DNA of 64,000 nt from Justusliebigvirus VEcB (OZ035773.1), one strand, 5' to 3'; positions 24,790-60,512 are shown, counted from the first letter of the stretch. The notes: generated by a model from the sequence alone, not told the origin. Made by a program: numbers and translations.

Positions 24790-25767
24790 TTAAGCAACAG
24801 TCTGGTCTTCTTTTTCAGGGAAGATTAAACTTGCAAGAACACCCAGCCCAAGAGTACCTAACACAATATACATACTGATCGTCGGGTCAATGTGTGCTGG
24901 CAGGAAACTCATTTTTGCGTGCAGAGTTTCTGCAAACGGATGATACATCAGTTTTACACCAACAAATACCAGGACTACGATAACTGCTTTCTCCAGATGA
25001 ACCAAATACTTCAGTGCAACACTAAGAACAAAGAACAGAGCACGTAAACCTAAGATTGCACAGAGCATCGAAGAGAACACCAGCAGAGGTTCTTGTGTCA
25101 CTGCAATTACTGCTGGAACAGAGTCTACTGCAAAGATTACGTCAACCATTTCCATTACAAACACACAAACCAGAGCCGGAGTTGCTACACGAACACCATT
25201 TTTGATTGTGAAGAACTTCTCACCATCCATCTGATCAGATACAGGGAACAGCTTACGAACAATGCGAGTAGCCCAGTGTTTAGAGTAATCAACTTCTGCA
25301 TCATCATCCCCAGCGAATACCATTTTAGCCGCACAGAAAAGGATGACAGCACCGAAGAAGATATTAACATACCAGCCCAAACTCAACAAGTAAGTACCTA
25401 CTGCTACAAACACACCTCGGAAGACAATCGCACCTGCAATACCCCAAAGTAGAATTTTGTGTTGCAAGTGTGTGCTTTTAATACCAAAACTTGCGAATAC
25501 TGCCACAAATACTACTAAGTTATCTACAGAAAGAGATTTCTCCAACACATACCCACTCAAGAACAAGCTCGCAAAATCAGCACCGTGTTGGAAGTATACA
25601 AAACCATAGTAGGCTAATGATACCCCAATCCAGAAAATTGACCAACCAACTGCTGATTTAAATGAAATCTCTTTGTTTTCTCTGTGTCCAAAGAAATCAA
25701 TACAAATCGACAACACTAAAATACCCACTAAAACAACCACATCAATAATTGGGAAACCCAGTTGCAT
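24790..25767 (-). CDS. TerC-family integral membrane protein
   Basis: Multiple TM helices; conserved EKSLSVDN segment typical of TerC. Confidence 0.7.
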   Translation of the reverse strand: MQLGFPIIDVVVLVGILVLSICIDFFGHRENKEISFKSAVGWSIFWIGVSLAYYGFVYFQHGADFASLFLSGYVLEKSLSVDNLVVFVAVFASFGIKSTHLQHKILLWGIAGAIVFRGVFVAVGTYLLSLGWYVNIFFGAVILFCAAKMVFAGDDDAEVDYSKHWATRIVRKLFPVSDQMDGEKFFTIKNGVRVATPALVCVFVMEMVDVIFAVDSVPAVIAVTQEPLLVFSSMLCAILGLRALFFVLSVALKYLVHLEKAVIVVLVFVGVKLMYHPFAETLHAKMSFLPAHIDPTISMYIVLGTLGLGVLASLIFPEKEDQTVA

Positions 25768-25844
25768 TCTTTTCTCCTCTTTAATGCGGAGGACAATCCT
25801 CCGCTCTATGTCTTATACTATAAACTGTTTTTAAAGAAAGTCAA

Positions 25845-48533: not shown

Positions 48534-48752
48534 TATTTTGAAAATTTTTATTTTTATAAAAAGGGGTGTGGGTTTCATGTACGGAAATTCACCCTCTGCA
48601 CAGTATACCCAGAGTAAGTATTATTCTATACTCTGTTAATAAAGTATTTAATTTGTTTGTTGGACTATGGTATCTGATCTTTAAAAGGCATACTATCTCT
48701 TAACTACTACTTATAACAGAACAGTAAAATCATTTTTATAAAAAGTACAAAA

Positions 48753-48949
48753 TTATTTAAAGTTTTTACAGATTTTTGGGTACAAATTTTGAAAATGAAA
48801 AGTTCAAGTTTGGTCAAAATTATTTAAAGTTTTTGTACGTATTTCTATCCAGATTTTGAAAATGAAAACTTCAATTTTTTAAAAATTCCCCAGTTTATTT
48901 AAAGTTTTTTTGCCTTTTTCCGTAGAAAAATCAAAAATGAAAAGTTCAA
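48753..48949. repeat. Three direct repeats of about 70 bp (iteron-like)
   Basis: Each unit carries TTATTTAAAGTTTTT and TTTTGAAAATGAAAAGTTCAA (48753/48786, 48820/48853, 48894/48931). Confidence 0.7.
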
Positions 48950-48972
48950 TTTCGTGTTTTTATAGGTGTGTT

Positions 48973-49086
48973 AATGAGAATCATTTTCGTTTGTAAATGA
49001 GAATCATTATCATTTAATTATGTAAGTGATAATCATTCTCAGTAAGAGAATGAGAATCATTAGCAAATGAGAATTTTTCTCATTTA
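48973..49086. repeat. Cluster of five AATGAGAATCATT-type 13-mers (Fur-box-like), partly arranged as inverted repeats
   Basis: Copies at 48973, 48996, 49026 (GTGATAATCATTCTC), 49049 and a palindromic AAATGAGAATTTTTCTCATTT at 49066. Confidence 0.7.
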
Positions 49087-49346: not shown

Positions 49347-49613
49347 TTATTTTTTGTTTTCTTGCCAGGATAGGACACCTAACCAAAAATACATGTCGCC
49401 CCGCGCCCCTGGCGGGATCTTGCTTTCCCCGCCGCCACTGCAAGCCCATAGATAACCATTAGCGAACGGATCAAAATGATCTATTTCTTCCACCTTATGA
49501 TCGCCCAGGTTGAGAACGGTTTCAACCTTTAAGCCCGTTGCGCTTGCTACCTGGTGCACCGTGCCGCCTTGCCAGCCTAATGAGTGCATGAGGTGTAGAG
49601 TAGGATTTGTCAT
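49347..49613 (-). CDS. Hypothetical small protein on the minus strand
   Basis: ATG at 49613 with AAAGGG RBS; preceded by a promoter plus stem-loop cassette of the same architecture as the plus-strand array. Confidence 0.45.
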   Translation of the reverse strand: MTNPTLHLMHSLGWQGGTVHQVASATGLKVETVLNLGDHKVEEIDHFDPFANGYLWACSGGGESKIPPGARGDMYFWLGVLSWQENKK

Positions 49614-49635
49614 GGTATCGCCCTTTCTTTGATGT

Positions 49636-49690
49636 GCGCCCTGGTTGGCGCGGTAGAAAGATAATAGCCCTTTCCTTTATAGATAGCAAG
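49636..49690 (-). promoter_or_regulatory. Promoter plus leader stem-loop cassette (minus strand)
   Basis: TTGCTA -35 (49685-49690), 18-nt spacer, TATTAT -10 (49661-49666), GCGCC/GGCGC hairpin (49636-49651). Confidence 0.5.
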
Positions 49691-49724
49691 CAAAAAAGAA
49701 ATGAAAAAAAGATTAAAAAAGGGG

Positions 49725-49753
49725 TTGACGTTCCTCACCTGGTAGCGTATTAT
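49725..49753 (+). promoter_or_regulatory. sigma70-like promoter, divergent from the 49636-49690 cassette
   Basis: TTGACG (49725-49730), 17-nt spacer, TATTAT (49748-49753). Confidence 0.5.
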
Positions 49754-49880
49754 TCATCTTGTCGAGGGGGGCGAGGCACAACGACAATAAACAAAAGGAG
49801 GGCGCAATGTAGGACGGGCAAAGGTGAGGATCTCCACAATCCACCGTCACAATAACATTACTTATAAAAGGTTGATAACG

Positions 49881-49976
49881 ATGATCAAGAAAGAAAACAG
49901 CTTGACGGTTGGAACGATTAACGCTATCATTCTTGCCGTTCCATTTTGGGTTGTAGTTGCGGTTATTATTTTTTAA
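49881..49976 (+). CDS. Small hydrophobic peptide (31 aa), not in the ORF track
   Basis: ATG preceded by AAAAGG; MIKKENSLTVGTINAIILAVPFWVVVAVIIF, a single TM helix. Confidence 0.35.
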   Translation: MIKKENSLTVGTINAIILAVPFWVVVAVIIF

Positions 49977-49984
49977 AAATATTC

Positions 49985-50040
49985 TTGACAACGTTTTTTA
50001 ATCTGATAAGATGTATCACATAGGGCGGCAATAGTGCCGC
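49985..50040 (+). promoter_or_regulatory. Promoter plus leader stem-loop cassette
   Basis: TTGACA, 16-nt spacer, TAAGAT, then CATAGG-GCGGCA-atag-TGCCGC hairpin (50025-50040), SD and ATG at 50065. Confidence 0.65.
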
Positions 50041-50064
50041 TCATAACAGAAGAGAGAAATAATC

Positions 50065-50337
50065 ATGGCATCATATAGCGCATCAATGATCGTAATGGGC
50101 ATCACTGGTAAACCTATGCGCGGTGGCGGATCTTTCGCTAATATTAATATTGATGGGCGTTTATCCCTGGATGCAGCGATCACCGTGGCACGGGAAACAT
50201 TTAAAAAAGAATGCAATTTCAATAAACAAGATTATCTCGGTTTCGCTATTGAAAAAACCGCGCGCTTTGTTGATTATAAAAGCCCAAAAATGGTTGATAC
50301 TACACTAAAAGCGCAAGATGTAGCGTTTTTGCTTTAA
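50065..50337 (+). CDS. Small early protein (90 aa)
   Basis: ORF downstream of the cassette. Confidence 0.55.
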   Translation: MASYSASMIVMGITGKPMRGGGSFANINIDGRLSLDAAITVARETFKKECNFNKQDYLGFAIEKTARFVDYKSPKMVDTTLKAQDVAFLL

Positions 50338-50340
50338 GGC

Positions 50341-50400
50341 TTGACACTGAAAAATAATTTGGTAATATATACCACATAAGGCGGGAAATGGTTTCCCGCC
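50341..50400 (+). promoter_or_regulatory. Promoter plus leader stem-loop cassette
   Basis: TTGACA (50341-50346), TAATAT -10, then perfect hairpin GGCGGGAAA-tgg-TTTCCCGCC (50380-50400). Confidence 0.65.
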
Positions 50401-50425
50401 AGGCCATCAAAGAAAGGGTAATGCA

Positions 50426-50788
50426 ATGAGCAAGCAAATCAATAATATCATGTTAAACCTGGTATCTTTCCGCGACGACGTGAAAAATCTTCCACGTGAT
50501 GCAGTGGATGCACGTATCGAAAGCTATCGCTCACAGATCGCAACGCTACCGCTAAAACGTGATCAACATGCCGCTAATATGATGCTTAATGCTATGCTTA
50601 AAAAGATGATTCAATGTGATCTTACTCTGGCTTATGAATATGCTGGCGATCTCTTTGTAACGTATAGTAAGCCCGTTCCAGGTATGAGCACCACGGAAGA
50701 ATTGCATGCCTTAAATCTGCGACAAGATGCATGGGATAACATGCGCCGTGTTATGGTATGGGTAGAAAGCGGTAAAATTTACGAATAA
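50426..50788 (+). CDS. Small early protein (120 aa)
   Basis: ORF with AAAGGG RBS downstream of the cassette. Confidence 0.55.
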   Translation: MSKQINNIMLNLVSFRDDVKNLPRDAVDARIESYRSQIATLPLKRDQHAANMMLNAMLKKMIQCDLTLAYEYAGDLFVTYSKPVPGMSTTEELHALNLRQDAWDNMRRVMVWVESGKIYE

Positions 50789-50794
50789 AAACGG

Positions 50795-50847
50795 TTGACA
50801 TTGCACTAAAACCTGATAAGCTATCTTAAAGCGGGAATAGTTCCCGC
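50795..50847 (+). promoter_or_regulatory. Promoter plus leader stem-loop cassette
   Basis: TTGACA (50795-50800), 16-nt spacer, TAAGCT, hairpin GCGGGAA-tag-TTCCCGC (50831-50847). Confidence 0.6.
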
Positions 50848-50866
50848 TTACATAGGATAAAACTTT

Positions 50867-51013
50867 ATGAAACAATATGTAATGAGTATTCACACCAAAA
50901 ACGGCGCTACTGTTACGACTCCGGCACGGTTTGCACTTGTAAACCGTTGCAAGAGACTAAAACGAGAGTTAAAAAATAACCGTGCAACGGGCTTTAAACG
51001 CTGGGGAGGATAA
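50867..51013 (+). CDS. Small basic protein (48 aa), not in the ORF track
   Basis: ATG at 50867 downstream of the cassette; stop overlaps the RBS of the next gene. Confidence 0.45.
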   Translation: MKQYVMSIHTKNGATVTTPARFALVNRCKRLKRELKNNRATGFKRWGG

Positions 51014-51015
51014 TC

Positions 51016-51288
51016 TTGTTTTTTCTAAAAGTTTTTGATAATGTGATCGCTTTTGAACATGCTACGACGTTCAACCTGGCGAGATACGCTATCAGGTTTA
51101 AAGATAATGTTTATCCCCGTGCTGGCGGCGGTTACACTATTTTTAATCATCGTAATGCGCAAATAACAGATATAACGAATCCAGATCCTGGGGTGTATCG
51201 CATAGGCTGGCTACCGTCAAAAGACGCGGCAAGCATGTTTAAGGTGTGTAAACTACTAACAGAAGAGGCGAACGAACATGGGGCGTGA
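51016..51288 (+). CDS. Small early protein (90 aa), TTG start
   Basis: TTG start 7 nt after GGAGG. Confidence 0.45.
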   Translation: MFFLKVFDNVIAFEHATTFNLARYAIRFKDNVYPRAGGGYTIFNHRNAQITDITNPDPGVYRIGWLPSKDAASMFKVCKLLTEEANEHGA

Positions 51289-51823
51289 ATATGTGATCCA
51301 GTCCTGGGTAAAGCATGACGCTAATGATCCGCGCATAATACCAGATGACATGATCGATCACATGGTAGGGTATAGCGGGGAGCAGATAGGGAATCGAGCG
51401 GCAAAGAGCAACGGCAACACAAAGGCGCGATCCGTTCGCCCTGGTTGGCTGGTAAATGGTAACGCTGACATTGCAAGCGCCGCAGATCCAAGCGATGACG
51501 CTAAAAATAATCCCTTGTATAGCATTGATCCGGCTTTTAAGGTGTTGGAAGAGTATCCCGCTAAATTAGCCGCACTAGATAAAGCATACGAAGAAAAACG
51601 GGTGGCATGGACTGTATACAACACCGCTAAAATGGTGCTAGATGCAAAATTGATTAAAGCCCAGGAGAAGATCAATAAACTTGTGACCATAGCGCAAGAG
51701 GAAGACCAGGAGGAAGAGGAAGAAATCATTCCTATCCTGGAAGAGGAAGAGATCCAGCCATACATGCCGACGGAAGAGGAAAAAAGACAAGCCTTAAAAA
51801 ATTATAAAAATTGTATTGTGTAA
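51278..51823 (+). CDS. Early protein with acidic C-terminal tail (181 aa)
   Basis: ORF; C-terminus EEDQEEEEEIIPILEEEE. Confidence 0.5.
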   Translation: MGREYVIQSWVKHDANDPRIIPDDMIDHMVGYSGEQIGNRAAKSNGNTKARSVRPGWLVNGNADIASAADPSDDAKNNPLYSIDPAFKVLEEYPAKLAALDKAYEEKRVAWTVYNTAKMVLDAKLIKAQEKINKLVTIAQEEDQEEEEEIIPILEEEEIQPYMPTEEEKRQALKNYKNCIV

Positions 51824-51825
51824 GG

Positions 51826-51854
51826 CTTGACATATGCAAACAAGCCCCGTAATA
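51826..51854 (+). promoter_or_regulatory. sigma70-like promoter (first of a tandem pair) with degenerate leader hairpin
   Basis: TTGACA (51826-51831), 17-nt spacer, TAATAT (51849-51854); imperfect GC-rich inverted repeat follows. Confidence 0.5.
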
Positions 51855-51902
51855 TATACCACATAGAGCGGGGCAACGCCTCAAAGGTGAAATAAAAAAT
51901 CA

Positions 51903-51930
51903 CTTGACACCTGAAATCAGTAAGCTATAA
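51903..51930 (+). promoter_or_regulatory. sigma70 consensus promoter (second of a tandem pair)
   Basis: TTGACA (51903-51908), 16-nt spacer, TATAAT (51925-51930). Confidence 0.6.
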
Positions 51931-51968
51931 TGCTTATATAAATTAAAGCGTTACTAAGGAATAAAATC

Positions 51969-52334
51969 ATGGCTAAAAATATCAATGTCTCTGCTTATGC
52001 TACCCTGGCTAACACTGCTAAAATTGAACTATCCAGCATTGAAGCGGTACATATTAGCGCCCGTCGCTGGTTTCAAAAGTCTTATGGTAATACTTATTTC
52101 TCTTTGATGGTTGACGTTGAGATCGGCGGTAAACTGATTGAGGTCGTTAACGTTCCGTTTCAATATGGTTATGGTGATCATTTTGATACCGTTGCCCTAG
52201 AAGAGTTTAGCAAGGTTATCAACCTGGAAGGTAAAGACTTTTCAAATTATGCTTACCTTTCCCGTTTTTGCCGTGATAATGGGATCGCTGTATACAGTCA
52301 TGCAAGCGATGTTAAACGTAAAAAAGATTTATAA
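51969..52334 (+). CDS. Small early protein (121 aa)
   Basis: ORF with AAGGA RBS. Confidence 0.55.
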   Translation: MAKNINVSAYATLANTAKIELSSIEAVHISARRWFQKSYGNTYFSLMVDVEIGGKLIEVVNVPFQYGYGDHFDTVALEEFSKVINLEGKDFSNYAYLSRFCRDNGIAVYSHASDVKRKKDL

Positions 52335-52340
52335 AAAGTA

Positions 52341-52404
52341 TTGACAGCACGAATAAAAAGCGTAAAATGTTTTATATCAGGACGGGGGAACGGTTTCCCC
52401 TCCT
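52341..52404 (+). promoter_or_regulatory. Promoter plus leader stem-loop cassette
   Basis: TTGACA (52341-52346), 16-nt spacer, TAAAAT, then GGGGGAA-cgg-TTTCCCC hairpin (52381-52404). Confidence 0.55.
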
Positions 52405-52423
52405 AACAAAGAGAGAAATAAAA

Positions 52424-52606
52424 ATGGCTAAATGCACTATCTGTAAGAAAGAAATAGTATTAGTTCCAAGTGCCCGTGAACGTGCCGCTAAGTTTGGTGG
52501 CAAACCGTCAGACTATACGAAAATGTTTACTACCCATGCAGCTTGTCAAGTAGCAAAACGTTCAGAAGAAAGCGTAAAATTAATGCGTAAACTTTCCAAA
52601 AAATAA
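52424..52606 (+). CDS. Small basic protein (60 aa)
   Basis: ATG at 52424 (MAKCTICKK...) after GAGAGA; the track ORF's upstream extension would overlap the promoter. Confidence 0.5.
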   Translation: MAKCTICKKEIVLVPSARERAAKFGGKPSDYTKMFTTHAACQVAKRSEESVKLMRKLSKK

Positions 52607-52608
52607 TA

Positions 52609-52667
52609 TTGACAAAGTATTTTATTACTATATAATGGTTTACATCGAGAGCGGGAATAGTTCCCGC
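52609..52667 (+). promoter_or_regulatory. Promoter plus leader stem-loop cassette
   Basis: TTGACA (52609-52614), 16-nt spacer, TATAAT (52631-52636), hairpin GCGGGAA-tag-TTCCCGC (52651-52667). Confidence 0.65.
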
Positions 52668-52691
52668 CTCACTGAAAAAGAGATTAACATC

Positions 52692-52931
52692 ATGGCTAAA
52701 TCTAAAATGTACAACGGTCACAAAAACAAAACTCATTGGAATGTAAGCCTTTGGATCAACAACGATGAAGGTTTTTATAATCTTGCGCGTGAATTTATCG
52801 CAGCTAACACCAATAAGAATGACGCAGCGCGGGATATGATGTTATTTCTTGAAAGTATGGATCAAGATAAAACGCCAGACGGTTACAAGTTCAGTAAAAC
52901 TGCAATCCGTGCCGCTATGGTTGGAATGTAA
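52692..52931 (+). CDS. Small early protein (79 aa)
   Basis: ATG at 52692 (MAKSKMYNG...). Confidence 0.5.
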   Translation: MAKSKMYNGHKNKTHWNVSLWINNDEGFYNLAREFIAANTNKNDAARDMMLFLESMDQDKTPDGYKFSKTAIRAAMVGM

Positions 52932-53027
52932 AGGAGACATAAAAATGAAACATCGTTCGACCTATCTGACAAAACGTTTTAGCTTAGATCATAAATTAGG
53001 CTATTACGGAAGAAATAGAAAATAATT

Positions 53028-53087
53028 TGACAACGTTTAAAATTAGTGTAAGATGTATCACGTAGGGCGGGAAATGGTTTCCCGCCA
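53028..53087 (+). promoter_or_regulatory. Promoter plus leader stem-loop cassette
   Basis: TTGACA (53028-53033), 16-nt spacer, TAAGAT, hairpin GGCGGGAAA-tgg-TTTCCCGCC (53067-53087). Confidence 0.65.
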
Positions 53088-53108
53088 AATCAAAGAAAGG
53101 TTATCATT

Positions 53109-53336
53109 ATGGCTATCGTTATTGTTCGCGTATCCGGTACGGTTGGGATCTCCCAGGTAGTAGCAGTTATCACCGAGAAGAAAGGGGATGATCTTCACTC
53201 CTCCTTGAATAGCTGGGCGGTCGCTAACTTTGGGCAATGGTCGAGCGTTGAGTACATCGAAGCCTACCAGGTGCCAACGATTAGCCTAACCGATCTAAAT
53301 GTTGATCGCTTGTTGTGCCTGGATGGATTAAACTAA
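53109..53336 (+). CDS. Small early protein (75 aa)
   Basis: ORF with AAAGG RBS. Confidence 0.5.
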   Translation: MAIVIVRVSGTVGISQVVAVITEKKGDDLHSSLNSWAVANFGQWSSVEYIEAYQVPTISLTDLNVDRLLCLDGLN

Positions 53337-53344
53337 AAATAATC

Positions 53345-53401
53345 TTGACAAGATAACTAAAATCAGTAAAATGTAATGCATAGGGCGGCAATAGTGCCGC
53401 C
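53345..53401 (+). promoter_or_regulatory. Promoter plus leader stem-loop cassette
   Basis: TTGACA (53345-53350), 16-nt spacer, TAAAAT, hairpin GGCGGCA-atag-TGCCGCC (53384-53401). Confidence 0.65.
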
Positions 53402-53423
53402 CCTAGTGAGAGAGATTATCAAA

Positions 53424-53639
53424 ATGGCTAATATCCGCACCTTGTTAAAAAATGCAAAGCAAGTTTTATTTTCAGATGACGAATATTTTAATAAAGATAT
53501 TACAGGCGTGAAAAATCTTAAAGATGTGAAAGATGTGATAGGTATTCGCGGATCTTTACGTAAAGGTGACACATACGGTAACAAGGTGCAATATAAATTA
53601 GATCAGTTTTATGATTTTACTTTGACAATTATTTCATAA
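53424..53639 (+). CDS. Small early protein (71 aa)
   Basis: ATG at 53424 (MANIRTLLK...). Confidence 0.5.
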   Translation: MANIRTLLKNAKQVLFSDDEYFNKDITGVKNLKDVKDVIGIRGSLRKGDTYGNKVQYKLDQFYDFTLTIIS

Positions 53640-53645
53640 AACTAC

Positions 53646-53706
53646 TTGCAAACCTGGTAAAATAAAGTAAACTATATTCATTAAGGCGGTGGAATAGCCC
53701 ACCGCC
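53646..53706 (+). promoter_or_regulatory. Promoter plus leader stem-loop cassette
   Basis: TTGCAA -35, TAAACT -10 candidate, hairpin GGCGGTGG-aatagc-CCACCGCC (53685-53706). Confidence 0.5.
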
Positions 53707-53729
53707 TAACAAAGAGAAGAGGAAACATC

Positions 53730-53900
53730 ATGATCACTTTCGCTACCCGTGAAGCCGCTCGCAACGTTGCACGTAAAGTTAACGCCGCCAACCTGGGCGC
53801 TACGCTTAAAGCCCCGGTGAAAGATGAATCAGGAAAATGGATCTTTCCTGGTCTGCGTCACGCTGATAAGCTGGGAACATTAACGTTAAAAAATAAATAA
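53730..53900 (+). CDS. Small basic protein (56 aa), not in the ORF track
   Basis: ATG at 53730 after GAGAAGAGGAAA; MITFATREAARNVARKV... Confidence 0.45.
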   Translation: MITFATREAARNVARKVNAANLGATLKAPVKDESGKWIFPGLRHADKLGTLTLKNK

Positions 53901-53907
53901 TATTCGC

Positions 53908-53966
53908 TTGACAGTAGCATCATTTATAAGTAAAGTAACAACAACGGCGGGAAATGGTTTCCCGCC
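53908..53966 (+). promoter_or_regulatory. Promoter plus leader stem-loop cassette
   Basis: TTGACA (53908-53913), 17-nt spacer, TAAAGT, hairpin GGCGGGAAA-tgg-TTTCCCGCC (53946-53966). Confidence 0.65.
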
Positions 53967-53986
53967 ATCAATAAAGAGATAAGATT

Positions 53987-54346
53987 ATGAAATCAGTAAA
54001 AGCAATTAAAACTTACATTGTGTCGGCTATTTCTTTTGATGGTACTACAACCGAAAAAGAAAAAATCACCGAACTGATGCGCCGTTTTAACTCTGAATAC
54101 TGGTATCAATCTAATCGTGATCGTTATAATAACAATATGGTACAAGCTGTTAAAAGCTGGTTACAAGGTTTACCGTCAGACATCAATATCGCTTTTAATT
54201 ATAACGAGATCGATCAATTATTAATTGAATGGAAGTACATAAAAGAAACAAGCAAAGAAACAACCGTTACCCGTGAGCGGGAAAATTATTGGTTATATAT
54301 TGCAAGCATGATCGTAACTTTGGCAAAATATCATAACGTAGCGTAA
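53987..54346 (+). CDS. Small early protein (119 aa)
   Basis: ORF downstream of the cassette. Confidence 0.55.
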   Translation: MKSVKAIKTYIVSAISFDGTTTEKEKITELMRRFNSEYWYQSNRDRYNNNMVQAVKSWLQGLPSDINIAFNYNEIDQLLIEWKYIKETSKETTVTRERENYWLYIASMIVTLAKYHNVA

Positions 54347-54360
54347 TCGAGAGGAAAAAC

Positions 54361-54498
54361 ATGAACGCATCACAGCAGATCGAAAAATTCAACCGCAACA
54401 AAGCGCGTAAAGATTGGAACGAAGAGATCACCAAAAAAGGCGACAAGCGGAACAAAACAAAAAGAGATCGCAGCACAAAAAGATACTGGAACGAATAA
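54361..54498 (+). CDS. Small highly basic protein (45 aa), not in the ORF track
   Basis: ATG after GAGAGGAAAAAC; Lys/Arg-rich; followed by a terminator. Confidence 0.4.
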   Translation: MNASQQIEKFNRNKARKDWNEEITKKGDKRNKTKRDRSTKRYWNE

Positions 54499-54503
54499 CA
54501 AAA

Positions 54504-54528
54504 AAGGGCGCAATAAGCGCCCTTTTAG
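54504..54528 (+). terminator. Rho-independent terminator
   Basis: GGGCGC-aataa-GCGCCC hairpin followed by TTTT. Confidence 0.6.
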
Positions 54529-54616
54529 CTTATATAGAGGCTTGTTACCCATAGGCAATGGTAACGCCAGGATAAGCCTATAAACCACGTTAGACAGCTT
54601 TACAGGAGCTTTAAAA

Positions 54617-54799
54617 ATGAAATTAGAAGAAATAAGCAAGGCACTAGCCCAGGGGCAAAGGTTAAACGCCCGTTATCGTGATCAATATGGCTTCATAACC
54701 AGCGGCGTGATCCTGGGGATTGAAGGCAATAAGATTTTTATTGACACGTTGAAAAACGTTGTATATAGTGACAATATAATCTCAATAAAACATATATGA
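54617..54799 (+). CDS. Small early protein (60 aa)
   Basis: ORF with AGGAGC RBS. Confidence 0.45.
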   Translation: MKLEEISKALAQGQRLNARYRDQYGFITSGVILGIEGNKIFIDTLKNVVYSDNIISIKHI

Positions 54800-55209
54800 G
54801 GCAAGAAATGAAAAAATTATTGATCGCTGGTTTAATCTCTTTTGGCATGGTTGGAACATCTAGCGCGGCGATATCCTCCACAGTAGCAGAATTAAGCGCC
54901 GTTGATGCAATGGAAAACGTCATGATCATTAATAATGCGATCCCCGATGAAATCATGGAGGATTCACACATGATCGCTTATGGTGCTGTTACACAACTAA
55001 CGGCAAAAATAGATAAATCTATTGTTAATGGCTTAAATGAAGATGTACCATGTGAAATTATTACCAGTGTGCTGACTACTCAAAATTTTACGCCGTGGCT
55101 AAAAAGTATTCAAAAGGTGCATAGTGCAGCCGCAGATCGTAGCAATGAAAAACTAGTGTCAGCACTTGCAACGTATACCCTGGCAAAATGCACTGAAATA
55201 AAAGATTGA
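54796..55209 (+). CDS. Secreted small protein (137 aa)
   Basis: N-terminal signal peptide MKKLLIAGLISFGMVGTSSAA. Confidence 0.5.
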   Translation: MRQEMKKLLIAGLISFGMVGTSSAAISSTVAELSAVDAMENVMIINNAIPDEIMEDSHMIAYGAVTQLTAKIDKSIVNGLNEDVPCEIITSVLTTQNFTPWLKSIQKVHSAAADRSNEKLVSALATYTLAKCTEIKD

Positions 55210-55234
55210 CAACATAGAAAGCACGTTATAAGAT
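55206..55234 (+). promoter_or_regulatory. sigma70-like promoter (no leader hairpin)
   Basis: TTGACA (55206-55211), 17-nt spacer, TAAGAT; AAGGAG RBS downstream. Confidence 0.55.
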
Positions 55235-55256
55235 ACACACAACAAAGGAGAACTAC

Positions 55257-55559
55257 ATGAACGGCATAGCTAAAACGTTTTTTCTTTTTTCTGGTGTAAA
55301 TGATCCATCAATAAAAGTCGATAGTGTAAAAGAAAACAATACTATCACCGCTAAATTGTTTCAAGATGAAACAAATAACGTGCTAATCATTAATCTTAAA
55401 GAAATAACTAAAGGTTATTATACTATTGCTTACCATGCGATCTATCATGCTGGTACTAGCGAGGAAGTGCAAACAAGCAACAACGAAAGCGCGGCGCTAC
55501 CTGGTGATCTGGTGCTGGGCGTTATCAGTTTAATTGTCAATGATTTTTTTAAGGAGTAA
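55257..55559 (+). CDS. Small early protein (100 aa)
   Basis: ORF with AAGGAG RBS. Confidence 0.55.
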   Translation: MNGIAKTFFLFSGVNDPSIKVDSVKENNTITAKLFQDETNNVLIINLKEITKGYYTIAYHAIYHAGTSEEVQTSNNESAALPGDLVLGVISLIVNDFFKE

Positions 55560-55888
55560 AACCATGCCCTATTTACATTTATTTTTCGGGATCTTATTGT
55601 CAGGATCTTTTTTCTTCTGTATACTTGTTTCTATTGTAAACCACGTTTTAAGACATTAAGGAAACAGCATGAAAATTATTCCCGTACAATATAGCGTAAT
55701 AAATCCAGCATACGAGGAAGGAAGGAAAACAAGCATGGCTTTATGTTATATTGCTACTATAGCCATGTTGTTATATATTGTGTTTTAATAGGTTTTATAG
55801 TTGTACGCTTTAAAGGCTTGACAATTTTTTGTTATGCTTTAAACTATATCTTGAAAACGGCAAAGGCCGCAAACAAAAGGGTAAAATT

Positions 55889-56212
55889 ATGAAATCTGTG
55901 ATCGGTGTTTATTTGGATAACTCTGATTTTTTCTATCATCGCGCTCGTTTCCTTGATGCGATTGAAATGATAGAATCAGGCTTTAAAGAGTATCGCCTTG
56001 CACATGATGACCTAGAAGCATTACAGGGCAATAGTGTTTTTACATTGCAAGCGAAAGCACTATGCAAAAGCCGGATCGACATTGCGAGCAAAAAGATAGA
56101 ACGCGGCATGTCCTGGTTACGCACCGCAGAAATCAACATGGGGCAATGGTACGGCGAAAACTTAGAAAATAAACTCACTTTTGTAAATGTAGAAAATATT
56201 AAAGATTATTGA
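55889..56212 (+). CDS. Small early protein (107 aa)
   Basis: ATG at 55889 (MKSVIGV...) downstream of a TTGACA at 55818. Confidence 0.5.
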   Translation: MKSVIGVYLDNSDFFYHRARFLDAIEMIESGFKEYRLAHDDLEALQGNSVFTLQAKALCKSRIDIASKKIERGMSWLRTAEINMGQWYGENLENKLTFVNVENIKDY

Positions 56213-56274
56213 TTGACAGCACACCTGATAAGGAGTATATTGTATCTCATAGAGCGGGGAAATGGTTTCCCCGC
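56213..56274 (+). promoter_or_regulatory. Promoter plus leader stem-loop cassette
   Basis: TTGACA (56213-56218), 17-nt spacer, TATATT, hairpin GCGGGGAAA-tgg-TTTCCCCGC (56254-56274). Confidence 0.65.
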
Positions 56275-56294
56275 CTTAACAGAAGAGATAAGAT

Positions 56295-56579
56295 ATGAAG
56301 ATCACAAAAGCACTTTCCAACTATGCAGCACGTCGCGGATTATGCTTATCCGTTGAAAACTTAGGGAAAGAAGATTTTTTGTGCTTTTGGGAGCTTGAGA
56401 ATGATAATGAGTGGATCTTCTCTTATTCTATCTGCGAAGATCAAAACGGTTGTTTATTAACCTGGCGCGGTAATATCTATCTACCGGAAGAAATCAAAGA
56501 AGAATTGCCAGGCACGATCATGACTGAGAAACAGCTTAAGGAAGTGATTAATTTTGTAGGGCAAAACATTAAAAAATAA
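56295..56579 (+). CDS. Small early protein (94 aa)
   Basis: ORF downstream of the cassette. Confidence 0.55.
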   Translation: MKITKALSNYAARRGLCLSVENLGKEDFLCFWELENDNEWIFSYSICEDQNGCLLTWRGNIYLPEEIKEELPGTIMTEKQLKEVINFVGQNIKK

Positions 56580-56580
56580 T

Positions 56581-56637
56581 TTGACACTAGGCAAACAACG
56601 TAGTAAAGTTTATCACATAGGGCGGCAATAGTGCCGC
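56581..56637 (+). promoter_or_regulatory. Promoter plus leader stem-loop cassette (leader identical to the 50013-50053 copy)
   Basis: TTGACA (56581-56586), 17-nt spacer, TAAAGT, hairpin GCGGCA-atag-TGCCGC (56622-56637); 41-nt leader identical to the cassette at 49985. Confidence 0.65.
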
Positions 56638-56660
56638 TCATAACAGAAGAGAAACAAATC

Positions 56661-56831
56661 ATGATCCCAACTATGTTTTATGTATCGCGCAAAGGTCACA
56701 ATATTTTTTGGTCTGAAGATTTAAATGAAGCCATGACGTTTGCCCGTGATCGTGTTGCTATTGGTGGCGTTAATATCACCGTAACCGATGAAAACGGCAT
56801 TGAATACTATAACGGCGACGATGAAGAGTAA
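56661..56831 (+). CDS. Small early protein (56 aa)
   Basis: ATG at 56661 (MIPTMFYVSRKG...). Confidence 0.45.
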   Translation: MIPTMFYVSRKGHNIFWSEDLNEAMTFARDRVAIGGVNITVTDENGIEYYNGDDEE

Positions 56832-56838
56832 TTAATGA

Positions 56839-56859
56839 GGCGGGGGAGTATTCCCCGCC
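56839..56859 (+). promoter_or_regulatory. Leader stem-loop without an obvious consensus promoter
   Basis: GGCGGGG-gagtatt-CCCCGCC hairpin 20 nt upstream of the ATG at 56879. Confidence 0.4.
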
Positions 56860-56878
56860 GTCAATAAAGAGGTAAATC

Positions 56879-57148
56879 ATGAAAATATCTTTGGACGTTG
56901 CAATCAAGGCCATCGAATCCGGTTACACCCTGGTAAAAGATGATAAGGCTAAAATAGTGCATCATGTTAACAAGGAAACAGGCGAAAGCATGATCACATA
57001 TAAAGCCGCCTACTTTCTCCAATCAGTAGCAGATCCGCGCGTACAGCGCCAGGTCACGGCGGCTATTGCTAAAAAATTATGTGCTTTACAGGGCACAAGT
57101 TTTAACGAGATCGCCCCGTGTTTTGACTGGTCGAGCTTGAAAAAATAG
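56879..57148 (+). CDS. Small early protein (89 aa)
   Basis: ORF with AGAGG RBS. Confidence 0.5.
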   Translation: MKISLDVAIKAIESGYTLVKDDKAKIVHHVNKETGESMITYKAAYFLQSVADPRVQRQVTAAIAKKLCALQGTSFNEIAPCFDWSSLKK

Positions 57149-57149
57149 T

Positions 57150-57211
57150 TTGATAATACGCGGTTATCTGGTAAAGTGTACGACATAGGGCGGGGCAATA
57201 AGGCAACGCCC
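57150..57211 (+). promoter_or_regulatory. Promoter plus leader stem-loop cassette
   Basis: TTGATA -35, 16-nt spacer, TAAAGT, then CATAGGGCGG...CGCCC imperfect hairpin (57188-57211). Confidence 0.5.
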
Positions 57212-57230
57212 ATTAATGAGGGGTAGAATC

Positions 57231-57335
57231 ATGTTAGAGAAAATTTTCACGGTTGTAATAGTGGGCCTGGCGTTATCGGTTGGATTGGTTGCAACTATGG
57301 CTAACATGATCCTATCTTCCCACGGTATCGGCTAA
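57231..57335 (+). CDS. Small hydrophobic peptide (34 aa), not in the ORF track
   Basis: ATG after GAGGGG; MLEKIFTVVIVGLALSVGLVATMANMILSSHGIG, a single TM helix. Confidence 0.35.
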   Translation: MLEKIFTVVIVGLALSVGLVATMANMILSSHGIG

Positions 57336-57349
57336 AAGAGAAACACAAC

Positions 57350-57736
57350 ATGAAAACAGAAATCATTATTGAAATCATCAACGGTTATAAAGAAGCCTTT
57401 ATTTTTGCCGAACCAGCGACGGATCACAATGGGGAATATATTGAGAATCTAGACGATTATGATTTTTCTCCTAGCGCCCTGAAACGTATTACCAGCGATG
57501 TGACCGCCTTTTGTGATGCCAATGATGCCGCTATCTCTGAGGCAATGAGCGACGGCGCTACAGCAAACCAGATCGGGAATGATTTACATTTTACCAGTAA
57601 CGGTCACGGCGTAGGTTTTTGGGATCGCCCTGAAATATACACTACTAACACCGCCAACCGTTTAACTGATGCAGCTAAATTAATGCCATTGGTGCATGCT
57701 TACATTGGTGAAGATAATTTGATTTATATTGACTAA
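57350..57736 (+). CDS. Small early protein (128 aa)
   Basis: ORF with AGAGAAA RBS. Confidence 0.5.
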   Translation: MKTEIIIEIINGYKEAFIFAEPATDHNGEYIENLDDYDFSPSALKRITSDVTAFCDANDAAISEAMSDGATANQIGNDLHFTSNGHGVGFWDRPEIYTTNTANRLTDAAKLMPLVHAYIGEDNLIYID

Positions 57737-57741
57737 AAGTG

Positions 57742-57800
57742 TTGACACCGATCCCCAATATGTTATTATTTACCACGTAGGCGGGAAATGGTTTCCCGCC
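57742..57800 (+). promoter_or_regulatory. Promoter plus leader stem-loop cassette
   Basis: TTGACA (57742-57747), 16-nt spacer, TATTAT, hairpin GGCGGGAAA-tgg-TTTCCCGCC (57780-57800). Confidence 0.65.
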
Positions 57801-57823
57801 AGGTAATCAAAAAGGTAAATACT

Positions 57824-58213
57824 ATGCGCAACCTGGTTTCTGTTTCTAACGTTGAAAAATTTCAATCCTTACAGGGTATCGTTAACAACGTAGCGCCTTT
57901 TTTAGTAAACGGCTTGATCGCAAAGATGAAAAATAAACATCATGCGGCATGGTCTGCTTACTGCTTTGATAATGATGAAAAAGCGGCTGAAATGATGTTA
58001 GATATGCTGTTAGATAGTGTAGAAACATCTTTACCGGAAAACATCGCAGAAGAGATCACCTATCGTTATAATATGGCGATCACTTACCAGGAGGTTGCGC
58101 AATTCAACATGATGGATGATGACGAACAACAGGATCAGGAAATGTTCTGGGAGTATGCGGATCGTCAATCAGCTTTTGATGAAAAATTAGCGATGTATTA
58201 TAACGAATATTAA
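57824..58213 (+). CDS. Early protein (130 aa), acidic
   Basis: ATG at 57824 (MRNLVSVSNVEK...) with AAAAGG RBS. Confidence 0.5.
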   Translation: MRNLVSVSNVEKFQSLQGIVNNVAPFLVNGLIAKMKNKHHAAWSAYCFDNDEKAAEMMLDMLLDSVETSLPENIAEEITYRYNMAITYQEVAQFNMMDDDEQQDQEMFWEYADRQSAFDEKLAMYYNEY

Positions 58214-58227
58214 TACACGGTAAAAGA

Positions 58228-58254
58228 AAGGGGCGCACTAAGCGCCCTTTTTTG
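58228..58254 (+). terminator. Rho-independent terminator
   Basis: GGGCGC-actaa-GCGCCC hairpin followed by TTTTTTG. Confidence 0.65.
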
Positions 58255-58712: not shown

Positions 58713-58739
58713 AGGGCGCTTATTGCGCCCTTTCTTTTT
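58713..58739 (+). terminator. Rho-independent terminator
   Basis: AGGGCGC-ttatt-GCGCCCT hairpin followed by TTCTTTTT. Confidence 0.65.
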
Positions 58740-58944: not shown

Positions 58945-59017
58945 AATGATAATCATTCTTATTTATAGCTGATTATTTATGCAATAAACTGCATAATGCA
59001 ATAATGATAATCATTCT
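58945..59017. repeat. Two copies of AATGATAATCATTCT (Fur-box-like 13-mer)
   Basis: Copies at 58945-58959 and 59003-59017. Confidence 0.65.
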
Positions 59018-59387
59018 TAACTTAAGACCATCTAACTTATAAAATAATAAGTTATCTAACTAAATTAAAGCTAATTATCTTACTTTTATTTATAACATAC
59101 TGTTACTATCTTATTGATAACCTTATATTAAACAACAATAATCAATGTAAATCATTACTAAGCTAACTATAATCTATCTAACCATTAAAACTATAACTAT
59201 AATCTATCGAATTGTTGCACAAAGTAACTATTAAATTGTTAGTAACATTACTAAATAATTCACATCTTATCTATTTATGATCTAATCTTTACCTCCCTAT
59301 TTATTACCTAAATAACCATTTCATGTAGTAATCATTTCATACAATAACTATAACAAGAAATATAATTCGCAAGCGTATCATTAGCAG

Positions 59388-59520
59388 CCTATGCCGGACA
59401 CATAGGCGGCTAATAATAACGCAACTACACCCCCCCACATAATAACTATCGCCGATAGTTATTATTTGTGTTTATGTAGCTTGCAACAATTGCAAGCGCA
59501 ACAATATACATGGTATATTG
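59388..59520. repeat. Cluster of four palindromes
   Basis: GCCTATG...CATAGGC (59388-59407); AATAACTATC-gcc-GATAGTTATT (59441-59463); GCTTGCAA-caa-TTGCAAGC (59479-59497); CAATATAC-atg-GTATATTG (59502-59520). Confidence 0.7.
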
Positions 59521-59618
59521 TATTCCCTTACATTGTTGCGGTGCGTTATTATTAGCTAATGTTTAGAACATTGGCTATAATATAAGCTGCATATAATAAG
59601 CTATACAATAATAAACAT

Positions 59619-59654
59619 AATGAATAATGACACTGAAATGAATAATGACACTGA
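59619..59654. repeat. Tandem 18-bp direct repeat (AATGAATAATGACACTGA x2)
   Basis: Two exact adjacent copies. Confidence 0.7.
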
Positions 59655-59793
59655 TGATCATAATGCGCCACCCTCCAGGGGCGCTATGTGAACACAAAGA
59701 AATCTTTCTTGTCAAGAAAAATATCATCATTATTGCGCAAAATTATTTACATCTGAATAGATGATTTTTCATACTATTGCCCCCATATAACTT

Positions 59794-59854
59794 ACTATTT
59801 GTTGCAATGTATTCCCCTATTTGTTGAGCATAGTTATAGCCTATTTGTTGAGCC
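59794..59854. repeat. Three copies of CTATTTGTTG
   Basis: At about 59795, 59817 and 59841, spaced 22-24 bp apart. Confidence 0.6.
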
Positions 59855-59926
59855 TACTTTCTTAAAAGCGCAATAAATCAGAATTATCTTGATTTTTAGG
59901 TAGTTTTATAGTATAGAAAATATGCA

Positions 59927-59942
59927 AATGATAATCATTATC
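59927..59942. promoter_or_regulatory. Fur-box-like site (AATGATAATCATTATC)
   Basis: 16/16 identity to positions 4-19 of the E. coli Fur box consensus GATAATGATAATCATTATC. Confidence 0.4.
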
Positions 59943-60118
59943 AGCTATCTTCCACGGGTGGCACTATTTCACACCAGATCATTTCATTTGGCAAGGTGTA
60001 GATAGATGTTTAGACTTGCCAAGTTATTGATTTACTTAGAATTTATCTGTTTTGTTGTAAGTAGAGCCTTTTTTGCTCAGAAAATAATCAAAAGTCTTAT
60101 AAGTCATTGAATGATAAT

Positions 60119-60151
60119 GCAAATGATAATTATTCTCATTGATATTTGAGG
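60119..60151. repeat. Degenerate tandem Fur-box-like motifs
   Basis: GAATGATAATGCAAATGATAATTATTCTCATTG. Confidence 0.5.
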
Positions 60152-60512
60152 GGGACGGTCGGGAAAAATCGGGGGGCGCTGAAAATCGCGTTAAGCACCT
60201 CTCGCAAGCGAGCAGTATTTTGCGGCAAGTTATTGATATTATTGACTTTACGCTTATGAAAAGGGGGTGTGTCGAAATAAATCGGGTATACCGGAAAATT
60301 TTTGTGGCATAGATATTTATTTGTCTATATTATGTACAAAGGGGTGTGTTAAAAATATTAGGTATATATAGAATAATTGATAGGGAAATCCTATACTAAT
60401 TCCTCCATTAATGATGTTTCTATGTTGCTGTTCTTGTAATAGATGAAAAGACGCTGTATGATGTGTGGCATGAAACGTAATCCTACAACGTAATCTTATA
60501 AAGGAGTCTGAT

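Follow-up and report, generated by a model that had tools for sequence, protein, structure and literature searches.

The window analysed here is a 64,000-nucleotide stretch of the genome of Justusliebigvirus VEcB (OZ035773.1). Our subject is an array between 49.6 and 57.8 kb in which small genes follow copies of one repeated expression module. The module consists, in this order, of an A-rich upstream (UP) region, the hexamer TTGACA, a spacer of 16–17 nt, a -10 hexamer of the form TAnnnT, a GC-rich hairpin, and an A/G-rich leader that carries a Shine-Dalgarno sequence (SD) and runs into the ATG. Over 98% of its length, the region 49600–57900 matches Escherichia phage alia (Justusliebigvirus) at 96.4% identity, and many other Justusliebigvirus phages (phi92-like; subfamily Stephanstirmvirinae) match it at 94–96% identity. 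Phapecoctavirus phages (ESCO13, phAPEC8) give patchy matches at ~83–89%.

Organization of the cassettes

Thirteen cassettes in the array region combine a sigma-70-like promoter with a strong hairpin; their -35 hexamers start at 49985, 50341, 50795, 52341, 52609, 53027, 53345, 53646, 53908, 56213, 56581, 57150 and 57742 (Table 1). In addition there are one promoterless hairpin (56839), three copies that are weak or degenerate (51827, 55818 and, on the minus strand, 49689) and one promoter that lacks a hairpin (49725). We defined a strict module as a promoter matching at least 9 of 12 positions, a perfect stem of at least 5 bp that passes a GC-weighted score cut-off, and a stem start no more than 16 nt from the -10. 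Eleven modules satisfied this definition, compared with a mean of 0.135 (sd 0.37, maximum 2) in 200 dinucleotide-preserving shuffles, and the repeated promoter–hairpin–SD module reported in a preliminary description of this DNA is thus real. The hairpin families and coordinates listed there were all present within one base: GGCGGGAAAtggTTTCCCGCC at 50380, 53066 (given as 53067), 53946 and 57780, GCGGCAatagTGCCGC at 50025, 53385 and 56622, and GCGGGAAtagTTCCCGC at 50831 and 52651. Cassettes 49985 and 56581 do share an identical leader, which measures 42 nt (50014–50055 = 56611–56652) and not 41 nt. The divergent pair 49689(-)/49725(+) was also recovered. The earlier count of at least 17 cassettes is reached only if the weak cases (49689 minus, 55818, 51827 and 49725) are included; what stands is 13 full cassettes and one promoterless copy. 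The statement that nearly every small gene is preceded by a module went too far: about half of the ~27 small open reading frames (ORFs) in the array have no module of their own and lie in short operons behind a cassette.

The geometry of the module is conserved. The gap between the -10 and the first paired base is 9–12 nt (mode 10) in 12 of the 13 cassettes; the stem-loop is 20–26 nt long, and 17–25 nt separate its end from the ATG. This last segment is A/G-rich (AACAGAAGAGA, AAAGAGA) and is predicted to be largely unpaired. Sigma-70 promoters start transcription 6–9 nt past the -10, and a stem placed 9–12 nt past the -10 would accordingly start near position +2 to +5 of the RNA, with ~1–5 unpaired nt predicted in front of it. 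Folding of the leaders had been proposed earlier as a check; from predicted start to ATG, the strong leaders form mainly one 5' hairpin each, with energies of -14 to -19 kcal/mol and z-scores of -1.9 to -5.2. Orientation is equally uniform, as all 113 of 113 covariance-model matches, from all sources, lie in the sense of the downstream gene. Across four genomes, 58 of 62 hairpins follow a promoter matching at least 9 of 12 positions, mostly in one fixed register, against 6.5% of random positions.

At its upstream edge the module runs into the preceding gene. Read by eye, the -35 hexamer begins roughly 0–8 nt past the upstream stop codon, which makes the A-rich UP region the 3' end of the upstream gene. 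At the stop codons 52604–52606, 53898–53900, 56577–56579 and 57146–57148 (among others) the UP A-tract overlaps the last upstream codons, and many of the encoded proteins consequently end in Lys/Asn-rich sequence (..LSKK, ..LKNK, ..NIKK, ..SLKK). Owing to this overlap, exchange at cassettes would also change protein C-termini. At the downstream edge, several gene starts read ATG GCT AAA or ATG GCT AAT, and five genes (51969, 52424, 52692, 53109 and 53424) start with ATG GCT (A/T)..., corresponding to MAK, MAI or MAN. Homology to relatives sometimes stops just past the ATG GCT codons, and the conserved module seems to reach the first 2–3 codons.

Table 1. Positions of cassettes, related elements and contrasting terminators in the window.
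Feature	Position	Strand	Sequence elements and remarks
Isolated cassette outside the array	25765..25844	-	TTGACT-16-TATAGT, hairpin GCGGAGGA-ttg-TCCTCCGC, SD, ATG
Weak cassette	49611..49689	-	TTGCTA-17-TATTAT, hairpin GCGCC/GGCGC (49637-49653, 5-bp stem), SD, ATG at 49613, 88-aa ORF
Putative remnant cassette	49725..49813	+	TTGACG-17-TATTAT, no convincing hairpin (z -0.3), then ATG-TAG
Cassette, 90-aa gene	49985..50067	+	hairpin GGGCGGCA-atag-TGCCGCTC
Cassette, 120-aa gene	50341..50428	+	hairpin GGCGGGAAA-tgg-TTTCCCGCC
Cassette, 48-aa gene	50795..50869	+	-10 TAAGCT, hairpin AAGCGGGAA-tag-TTCCCGCTT, -10-to-stem gap only 6 nt
Orphan cassette	51827..51903	+	promoter, degenerate hairpin, SD-like leader, no ORF; next promoter directly behind
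Promoter without hairpin, 121-aa gene	51904..51971	+	12/12 consensus
Cassette, 60-aa Cys-rich gene g7	52341..52426	+	hairpin AGGA(C)GGGGGAA-cgg-TTTCCCCTCCT, contains a G.U pair
Insertion relative to phi92, phage Paula and ESCO13	52370..52638	+	269 bp: leader hairpin, g7, second promoter
Cassette, 79-aa DUF7249 gene	52609..52694	+	12/12 promoter, hairpin GAG(A)GCGGGAA-tag-TTCCCGCCTC
Cassette, 75-aa gene	53027..53111	+	hairpin GGCGGGAAA-tgg-TTTCCCGCC
Cassette, 71-aa gene	53345..53426	+	hairpin GGGCGGCA-atag-TGCCGCCC
Cassette, 56-aa gene	53646..53732	+	TTGCAA-16-TAAACT, hairpin AGGCGGTGG-aatagc-CCACCGCCT
Cassette, 119-aa gene	53908..53989	+	hairpin GGCGGGAAA-tgg-TTTCCCGCC
Bidirectional intrinsic terminator, for contrast	54502..54526	.	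AAAAGGGCGC-aataa-GCGCCCTTTT; outside the cassette family
Weak cassette, 107-aa gene	55818..55891	+	4-bp hairpin CGGC-aaag-GCCG, -6 kcal/mol, z -1.3
Cassette, 94-aa gene	56213..56297	+	hairpin GCGGGGAAA-tgg-TTTCCCCGC
Cassette, 56-aa gene	56581..56663	+	same leader as cassette 49985 over 42 nt
Promoterless hairpin and ribosome-binding site (RBS) (56839)	56834..56881	+	GGCGGGGGA-gta-TTCCCCGCC
Cassette, 34-aa membrane peptide	57150..57233	+	TTGATA-16-TAAAGT, divergent hairpin GGGCG...CGCCC (57188)
Cassette, 129-aa gene	57742..57826	+	hairpin GGCGGGAAA-tgg-TTTCCCGCC
Intrinsic terminator, for contrast	58225..58253	+	T-tract; closes the array
Canonical terminator	58713-58731		with T-run

The weaker copies at the left edge of the array differ from the rest. 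The minus-strand cassette 49611..49689, which diverges from promoter 49725 (+), folds with -11.9 kcal/mol (z -1.8) and was missed by covariance models R1 and R2. Promoter 49725 and its SD are followed by a start-stop mini-ORF, ATG TAG, at 49808–49813. The equivalent promoter of phAPEC8 and ESCO13 leads into a canonical hairpin and a real 65-aa gene; judged by this comparison, 49725 is a putative remnant cassette that lost its hairpin in the window genome. Ten of the encoded proteins were compared with Pfam, which returned DUF7249 for one and no match for the others, so that what the genes encode does not hint at the module's role.

Stem variation and gene exchange

The stems found within this one window include GGCGGGAAA, GCGGGGAAA, GCGGGAA, GGGCGGCA, AGGCGGTGG, GGGGGAA, GGCGGGGGA and GCGGAGGA. 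One genome holds about ten stem sequences, with stems of 5–9 bp and loops of 3–7 nt (the divergent copy at 57188 has 14), and the loops seen are UGG, UAG, CGG, UUG, GUA, AUAG and AAUAGC. The apex is more constant: across three phage lineages the two apical pairs, A-U in ~90% of copies, are joined by a loop that mostly reads U-R-G. Because MAFFT by itself put the 3' arms out of register, nine copies of equal length were used to seed the structural alignment and, from it, a covariance model that was then widened with matches from relatives. In set 1 (77 copies, 56 distinct) 95.4% of cells are paired, and changes on both sides of the stem occur at eight of the nine pairs (89 cells). The covariation score of this set is 0.536, compared with 0.186 for column shuffles (none of 500 reached the observed value) and no more than 0.16 when the 3' partner was slid by 1–3 columns. 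Set 2 (36 copies from phi92, BF17 and rV5) behaved similarly, with 93.6% of cells paired and a score of 0.506 against 0.182. G.U appositions outnumber A.C appositions (30 vs 11), and in 35 of 46 distinct hairpins it is the sense RNA that has the more stable fold (mean advantage over the antisense 1.0 kcal/mol, Wilcoxon p = 0.001). Pairing in the stem has thus been selected or maintained while its sequence changed.

The cassettes are also where breaks in homology between related phages concentrate. The region was aligned to Paula, ESCO13 and phi92, and the ends of BLAST blocks in these three genomes were taken as breakpoints. With the module taken from the UP region to ATG+8, modules cover 23.7% of the sequence; 26 of 40 internal homology-block ends fall inside them (23.7% expected by coverage; binomial p = 3e-8, the endpoints being partly non-independent). 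The block ends of ESCO13 are scattered over the UP region, the -35, the spacer, the position just after the -10, the start, loop and end of the hairpin, and the first codons. Gene order in ESCO13 and phAPEC8 differs from that in the window, as the genes for the 31-aa membrane peptide and the 120-aa protein have moved relative to the 90-aa and 181-aa genes, and all junctions of this reordering lie in cassettes. Paula has an additional gene at the position of the window's orphan cassette 51827.

The clearest single event concerns g7 (52424–52606; BF17 locus L002, 4063–4245), which encodes a 60-aa Cys-rich protein (CxxC...C) and has ~88% nucleotide identity with Asteriusvirus phages of 350–386 kb. 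The gene is absent from phi92, Paula, alia and ESCO13. At this site phi92 carries a single cassette between gp231 and gp232, whereas the window reads phi92-type promoter, BF17-like hairpin, g7, BF17-like promoter, phi92-type hairpin and leader. A three-way alignment places both junctions of the 269-bp insert between a -10 hexamer and a hairpin, and the stretch from the -10 of one cassette to the leader of the next (52362–52683) is 88.4% identical to BF17 and ~88% identical to jumbo phages. This looks like a recent cross-lineage transfer with a jumbo-phage-like donor. The layout would be the expected outcome of a crossover between cassettes, or of the integration of a circular promoter–hairpin–gene unit. 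It offers a concrete case, resolved at sequence level, in which a gene and its expression signals apparently passed together between a jumbo lineage and a lineage of 147-kb phages.

A similar picture is given by cassette 57150, which together with its 34-aa hydrophobic peptide gene (57136–57335; PDX locus L003, 4001–4200) is 92–96% identical to rV5-like phages; almost no other DNA around it can be aligned with those phages. The hairpin in front of one gene also differs between phages. The 90-aa gene has nearly identical flanks and different hairpins in the window (GGGCGGCA-atag-TGCCGCTC) and in ESCO13 (GGGCGGGAAG-tgg-TTTCCCGCTC), and in phAPEC8 its hairpin is GGCGGCGGA-atgg-TCCACCGC. One hairpin of phAPEC8 is chimeric, with arms from two different families. 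On these comparisons the module is very probably a recombination substrate that shuffles small accessory genes and transfers them horizontally with their expression signals. A repeated module of ~100 bp that is common to phi92-like, phAPEC8-like, rV5-like and Asteriusvirus phages amounts to portable homology, and recombination between modules would insert, delete, reorder and horizontally transfer small genes together with these signals.

Proposed role of the 5' hairpin

On balance we favour a combined explanation in which the module is an early-expression cassette whose 5' hairpin stabilises or insulates the messenger RNA (mRNA), and which at the same time serves as a substrate for exchange. 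That the hairpin acts as an mRNA stabiliser or insulator is largely what we infer and is put forward tentatively. Host RNA polymerase would fire the near-consensus sigma-70 promoters and start about 7 nt past the -10; expression would be early, as promoter type and genome position suggest. The GC-rich stem-loop would then become the 5'-terminal structure of each short mRNA, from about +2 to +5, where it would most likely impede RppH and RNase E at the mRNA 5' end and would keep the ribosome site unpaired from whatever ORF stands downstream. An unstructured A/G-rich leader of ~20 nt would follow and carry the SD, and then the ATG. The hairpin of the promoterless copy would serve likewise for a cistron reached by read-through. 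The 56839 hairpin begins 7 nt past the stop codon of the upstream gene, and 19 nt separate its end from the ATG; it holds the ATG distance and not the distance to the upstream stop, which fits a role tied to the downstream cistron.

There are precedents for such a leader. In T7 the phi10 leader of gene 10, like the class III transcripts, carries a 5' hairpin; in this leader promoter, hairpin, A/U-rich spacer and SD follow one another as they do here. The ompA and papA 5' untranslated regions (5' UTRs) likewise set a stable hairpin within a few nucleotides of the 5' end, ahead of an unstructured leader and the RBS. A stabiliser of this type is expected to leave no more than about 2–4 unpaired nt before the hairpin and to lengthen mRNA half-life in a way that depends on pairing. 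RppH and the 5' sensor of RNase E require single-stranded 5' ends, which is the accepted cause of stabilisation by 5' stem-loops (PMC3997798, citing Emory 1992, Bouvet & Belasco 1992). The ompA and papA hairpins protect from RppH and from 5'-end-dependent RNase E (PMC3997798), whereas for the module the 5' position and the stabilisation are predicted. The hairpins of ompA, papA and T7 are also single and gene-specific; the module described here is multiplied ~15 times and mobile. Of the functions offered in the preliminary description, an RNA-level 5' hairpin acting in stability or translation fits best, since position, covariation and sense bias agree with it, given the predicted transcription start. 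With the hairpin in the 5' UTR at fixed distances, the module suggests a natural context-independent expression unit (promoter, 5' stabiliser/insulator and RBS) that may be of interest to synthetic biology.

Several observations weigh against this explanation. Our search of the accessible literature yielded no transcription-start, half-life or expression data for these phages, and we therefore infer both the 5'-terminal position and the stabilisation. The gap between -10 and stem looks longer in BF17 (~11–14 nt by eye), so that the hairpin lies further from the predicted start; the resulting longer unpaired 5' tail would mean weaker protection. Three otherwise good promoters (51904, 54741 and 55206) have no hairpin. 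The advantage of the sense strand is only ~1 kcal/mol, the covariation alignments were fitted to the model, and the copies are related, which makes the tests non-independent and the p-values optimistic. Covariation in a DNA palindrome can also arise without selection on RNA, by gene conversion between cassettes or by template-switch correction of quasipalindromes. Finally, the conserved apical A-U pairs and the YRG/U-R-G loop exceed what pure stability would need and leave room for a binding factor.

This last point is the main attraction of a trans-acting RNA-binding protein, of phage or host, that would bind the hairpin and co-regulate the small genes, for instance by switching their translation off or on at a given moment, by a logic similar to that of T4 RegA/RegB or lambda N-boxB. 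The conservation of the apex beyond pairing, the fixed position relative to start and RBS and the strictly sense orientation are all compatible with such a protein. However, stem sequence, stem length and loop length vary widely within one genome, the Rfam search gave no match, and we identified neither a candidate binder nor a boxA-like partner motif; we regard this possibility as unlikely. The lambda nut site (boxB) is comparable in being a short RNA hairpin just downstream of early promoters, but it has a 5-bp stem, a conserved GNRA-like pentaloop and a boxA partner, and occurs twice per genome, compared with ~15 variable copies here in which no boxA-like motif was seen. Rather unlikely, too, is that the hairpins terminate or attenuate transcription arriving from upstream while the genes are mainly self-promoted, as has been proposed and partly shown for the PeSLs (promoter-early stem-loop cassettes) of RB49 and phi1. 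One PeSL stem-loop cut lacZ read-through as strongly as rrnB T1 (PMC2839356), the hairpins of the module are GC-rich and stable, and in the Paula record nine of them are annotated as terminators, albeit on the other strand. Here, however, the hairpin lies downstream of its own -10 and predicted start, where an efficient terminator would abort its own transcript; in RB49 the stem-loop is placed within the -35/-10 spacer, before the start. As the preliminary description had already noted of the missing T-tracts, the sequence speaks against simple terminators: the stretch behind the hairpins is A-rich, no copy is followed by a U-tract (at most 3 T in the first 10 nt), and a terminator scan flagged none of the cassette hairpins on the plus strand. 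Canonical terminators that do end in T-tracts stand elsewhere in the array, at 54502 and 58225. In the window's true terminators the hairpin is mostly capped by a G/C-closed tetraloop of the GNRA or UUCG type and followed by a T-run, whereas a cassette hairpin ends in two A-U pairs below a U-R-G triloop or one related to it.

Three further explanations move the function from the RNA to the DNA or to another polymerase. The hairpin might be a recombination signal, cruciform or single-stranded, for a structure- or site-specific enzyme, with an integron-like pool of cassettes shared across lineages and circles excised and re-inserted beside hairpins. Both junctions of the g7 insert lie just 5' of a hairpin, the chimeric hairpin of phAPEC8 points in the same direction, and the junction of an RB49 PeSL mini-circle was mapped to the stem-loop's loop (PMC2839356). 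The ends of the ESCO13 blocks are nevertheless spread over the whole module, no recombinase was identified, and junctions distributed along a ~100-bp repeat are the pattern predicted by ordinary homologous recombination, which makes a dedicated signal quite improbable. Integron attC cassettes resemble the array in that small genes, mostly of unknown function, move as units bounded by a hairpin-forming repeat, and circular intermediates have been proposed for PeSLs. We treat this as an analogy only, since here no integrase was identified, the junctions are spread over the module, and the repeat carries a promoter and an RBS. The single palindromic operator of the preliminary description, at which a dimeric repressor would shut all early promoters together, is very improbable. 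The palindromes do span about +2 to +25, so that a protein bound there would stand in the way of RNA polymerase, and an outer GCGG...CCGC is common to many copies. Yet about ten half-site sequences per genome, at variable spacing, are hard to reconcile with one repressor; the changes are compensatory and do not conserve a motif, G.T is tolerated more than A.C, and the 56839 copy has no promoter to regulate. N4 virion RNA polymerase uses promoters that are short hairpins with 3-nt loops, and the phAPEC8 record JX561091 labels exactly these hairpins as promoters found with PHIRE. That the conserved 20-mers are phage-specific promoters, as this label has it, or N4-type hairpin promoters for a phage RNA polymerase is extremely improbable all the same: a near-consensus sigma-70 promoter precedes 58 of the 62 hairpins at a constant distance, alia has no annotated phage RNA polymerase, and PHIRE detects only repeated words. 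RNase III processing sites were rejected as a candidate, as stems of 6–9 bp are, by established knowledge, too short.

Distribution, related systems and genome setting

The module is present in several groups of large phages. Throughout the complete genome of alia, model matches are confined to the homologous 8.3 kb and one copy on the other strand before a TerC-like gene; phi92 has 12 copies. Four matches were found in 50 kb of rV5 (Vequintavirinae), all within a small-gene block, and PDX carries the architecture too, as do phAPEC8 and ESCO13 (Phapecoctavirus). All 20 matches in the jumbo phage BF17 (Asteriusvirus) lie in the first 20 kb, where small genes stand 80–100 bp apart; beyond this the genes are tightly packed. 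The covariance model offers an easy way to pick out the parts of these genomes that probably hold early, accessory genes. A blastn search with one cassette returned only Stephanstirmvirinae and Vequintavirinae, and a scan of IMG/VR for exact hairpins found only 3 stretches on 2 contigs of phi92-like size, which adds nothing on distribution. In many BF17 cassette promoters the spacer contains the palindrome AGTACT immediately ahead of TGTATAAT (ttgacaaagtatcttAGTACTgtataat), for example at locus L002, 3977–4062; this spacer motif of BF17 (loci L002 and L011) is absent from the phi92-like cassettes.

Public records describe these elements variously. JX561091 names them "putative promoter determined with PHIRE", Paula lists the nine as reverse-strand terminators, and the phi92 GenBank record annotates only RBSs and coding sequences in the array region; on our analysis the hairpins are neither phage promoters (phAPEC8) nor reverse-strand terminators (Paula). 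The rV5 genome paper lists sigma-70 promoters and no promoter–hairpin module. For phi92-like, rV5-like and Asteriusvirus phages we came across no earlier account of the module in the searchable literature, outside which several key genome papers lie. A literature search likewise found no transcriptomes or start-site maps of Vequintavirus, Phapecoctavirus, Justusliebigvirus or Asteriusvirus, and an Rfam scan of 45–64 kb (E <=1) gave nothing relevant.

The closest known systems are the PeSLs, described in the T4-like phages RB49/phi1, T4/PST and KVP40/nt-1 (Arbiol et al. 2010, PMC2839356; Comeau et al. 2014, PMC4122927). PeSLs combine an early promoter with a stem-loop in hyperplastic regions before ORFans and have been implicated in modular shuffling and mini-circles (PMC2839356, PMC4122927). 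Both systems have an AT-rich upstream region, a strong early promoter of the sigma-70 type, a stable stem-loop with G-rich and C-rich arms, an SD and an ATG; both are clustered in a variable region before small ORFans, lie at insertion, deletion and replacement junctions between related phages, and leave degraded "half" copies near indels. They differ in host lineage, with PeSLs in Straboviridae and the present module in Stephanstirmvirinae, Vequintavirinae and Asteriusvirus. The RB49 stem-loop lies mostly in the -35/-10 spacer or over the boxes (e.g. TTGACAggggatcaccgatccccTATAAT), a position upstream of the start that suits a terminator role, whereas here it follows the -10 by 9–12 nt in what is predicted to be the transcribed leader. 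Terminator activity and mini-circles formed between tandem copies belong to the description of PeSLs; in the module the missing U-tract speaks against termination. Model R2 gave no match in RB49 100–150 kb, which holds at least 12 PeSLs (intergenic sequences read by eye). Because promoter, stem-loop, location and link to indels are shared, and stem-loop position, similarity and lineage are not, we class the module as a variant of the T4-like PeSL cassettes with the hairpin moved into the 5' UTR, outside the described PeSL families. The idea of a mobile regulatory cassette would in this way reach beyond T4-like phages to three more groups of large coliphages, which feature widely in therapy collections.

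The array lies close to a genome end. The region homologous to it forms the right end of the linear phi92 genome, and the direct terminal repeat of phi92 (343 bp) maps to 59851–60193 of the window with 95.6% identity, which implies that the array is transcribed toward a physical genome end 2.4–10.5 kb away. The sequence at ~58970–60500 is poor in ORFs; by this homology the physical genome ends fall here, between the cassette array on the right end and a packed small-gene operon on the left end. Just upstream of the divergent promoter pair, 48748–49062 is AT-rich and non-coding and contains a 67-bp unit twice and 23–29-bp units two to three times. Its counterpart in alia is annotated repeat_region, and it could be an origin or a regulatory region.

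The isolated minus-strand cassette 25765..25844 lies inside a long minus-strand block and precedes a gene annotated in alia as a TerC-like integral membrane protein. It stands far from the array (counterpart locus L006, 5300–5346, minus strand), as if marking an accessory gene.

Some database matches fall outside the expected hosts. The first 942 bp of MT119359.1 (Enterococcus phage heks, 39.7 kb) are 93% identical to the coliphage region of the window, and several 146-kb "Campylobacter phage" records (MG065645 and MG065689; A145, A110a) are ~95% identical to the window region throughout. These entries probably reflect database contamination or mislabelling of the host.

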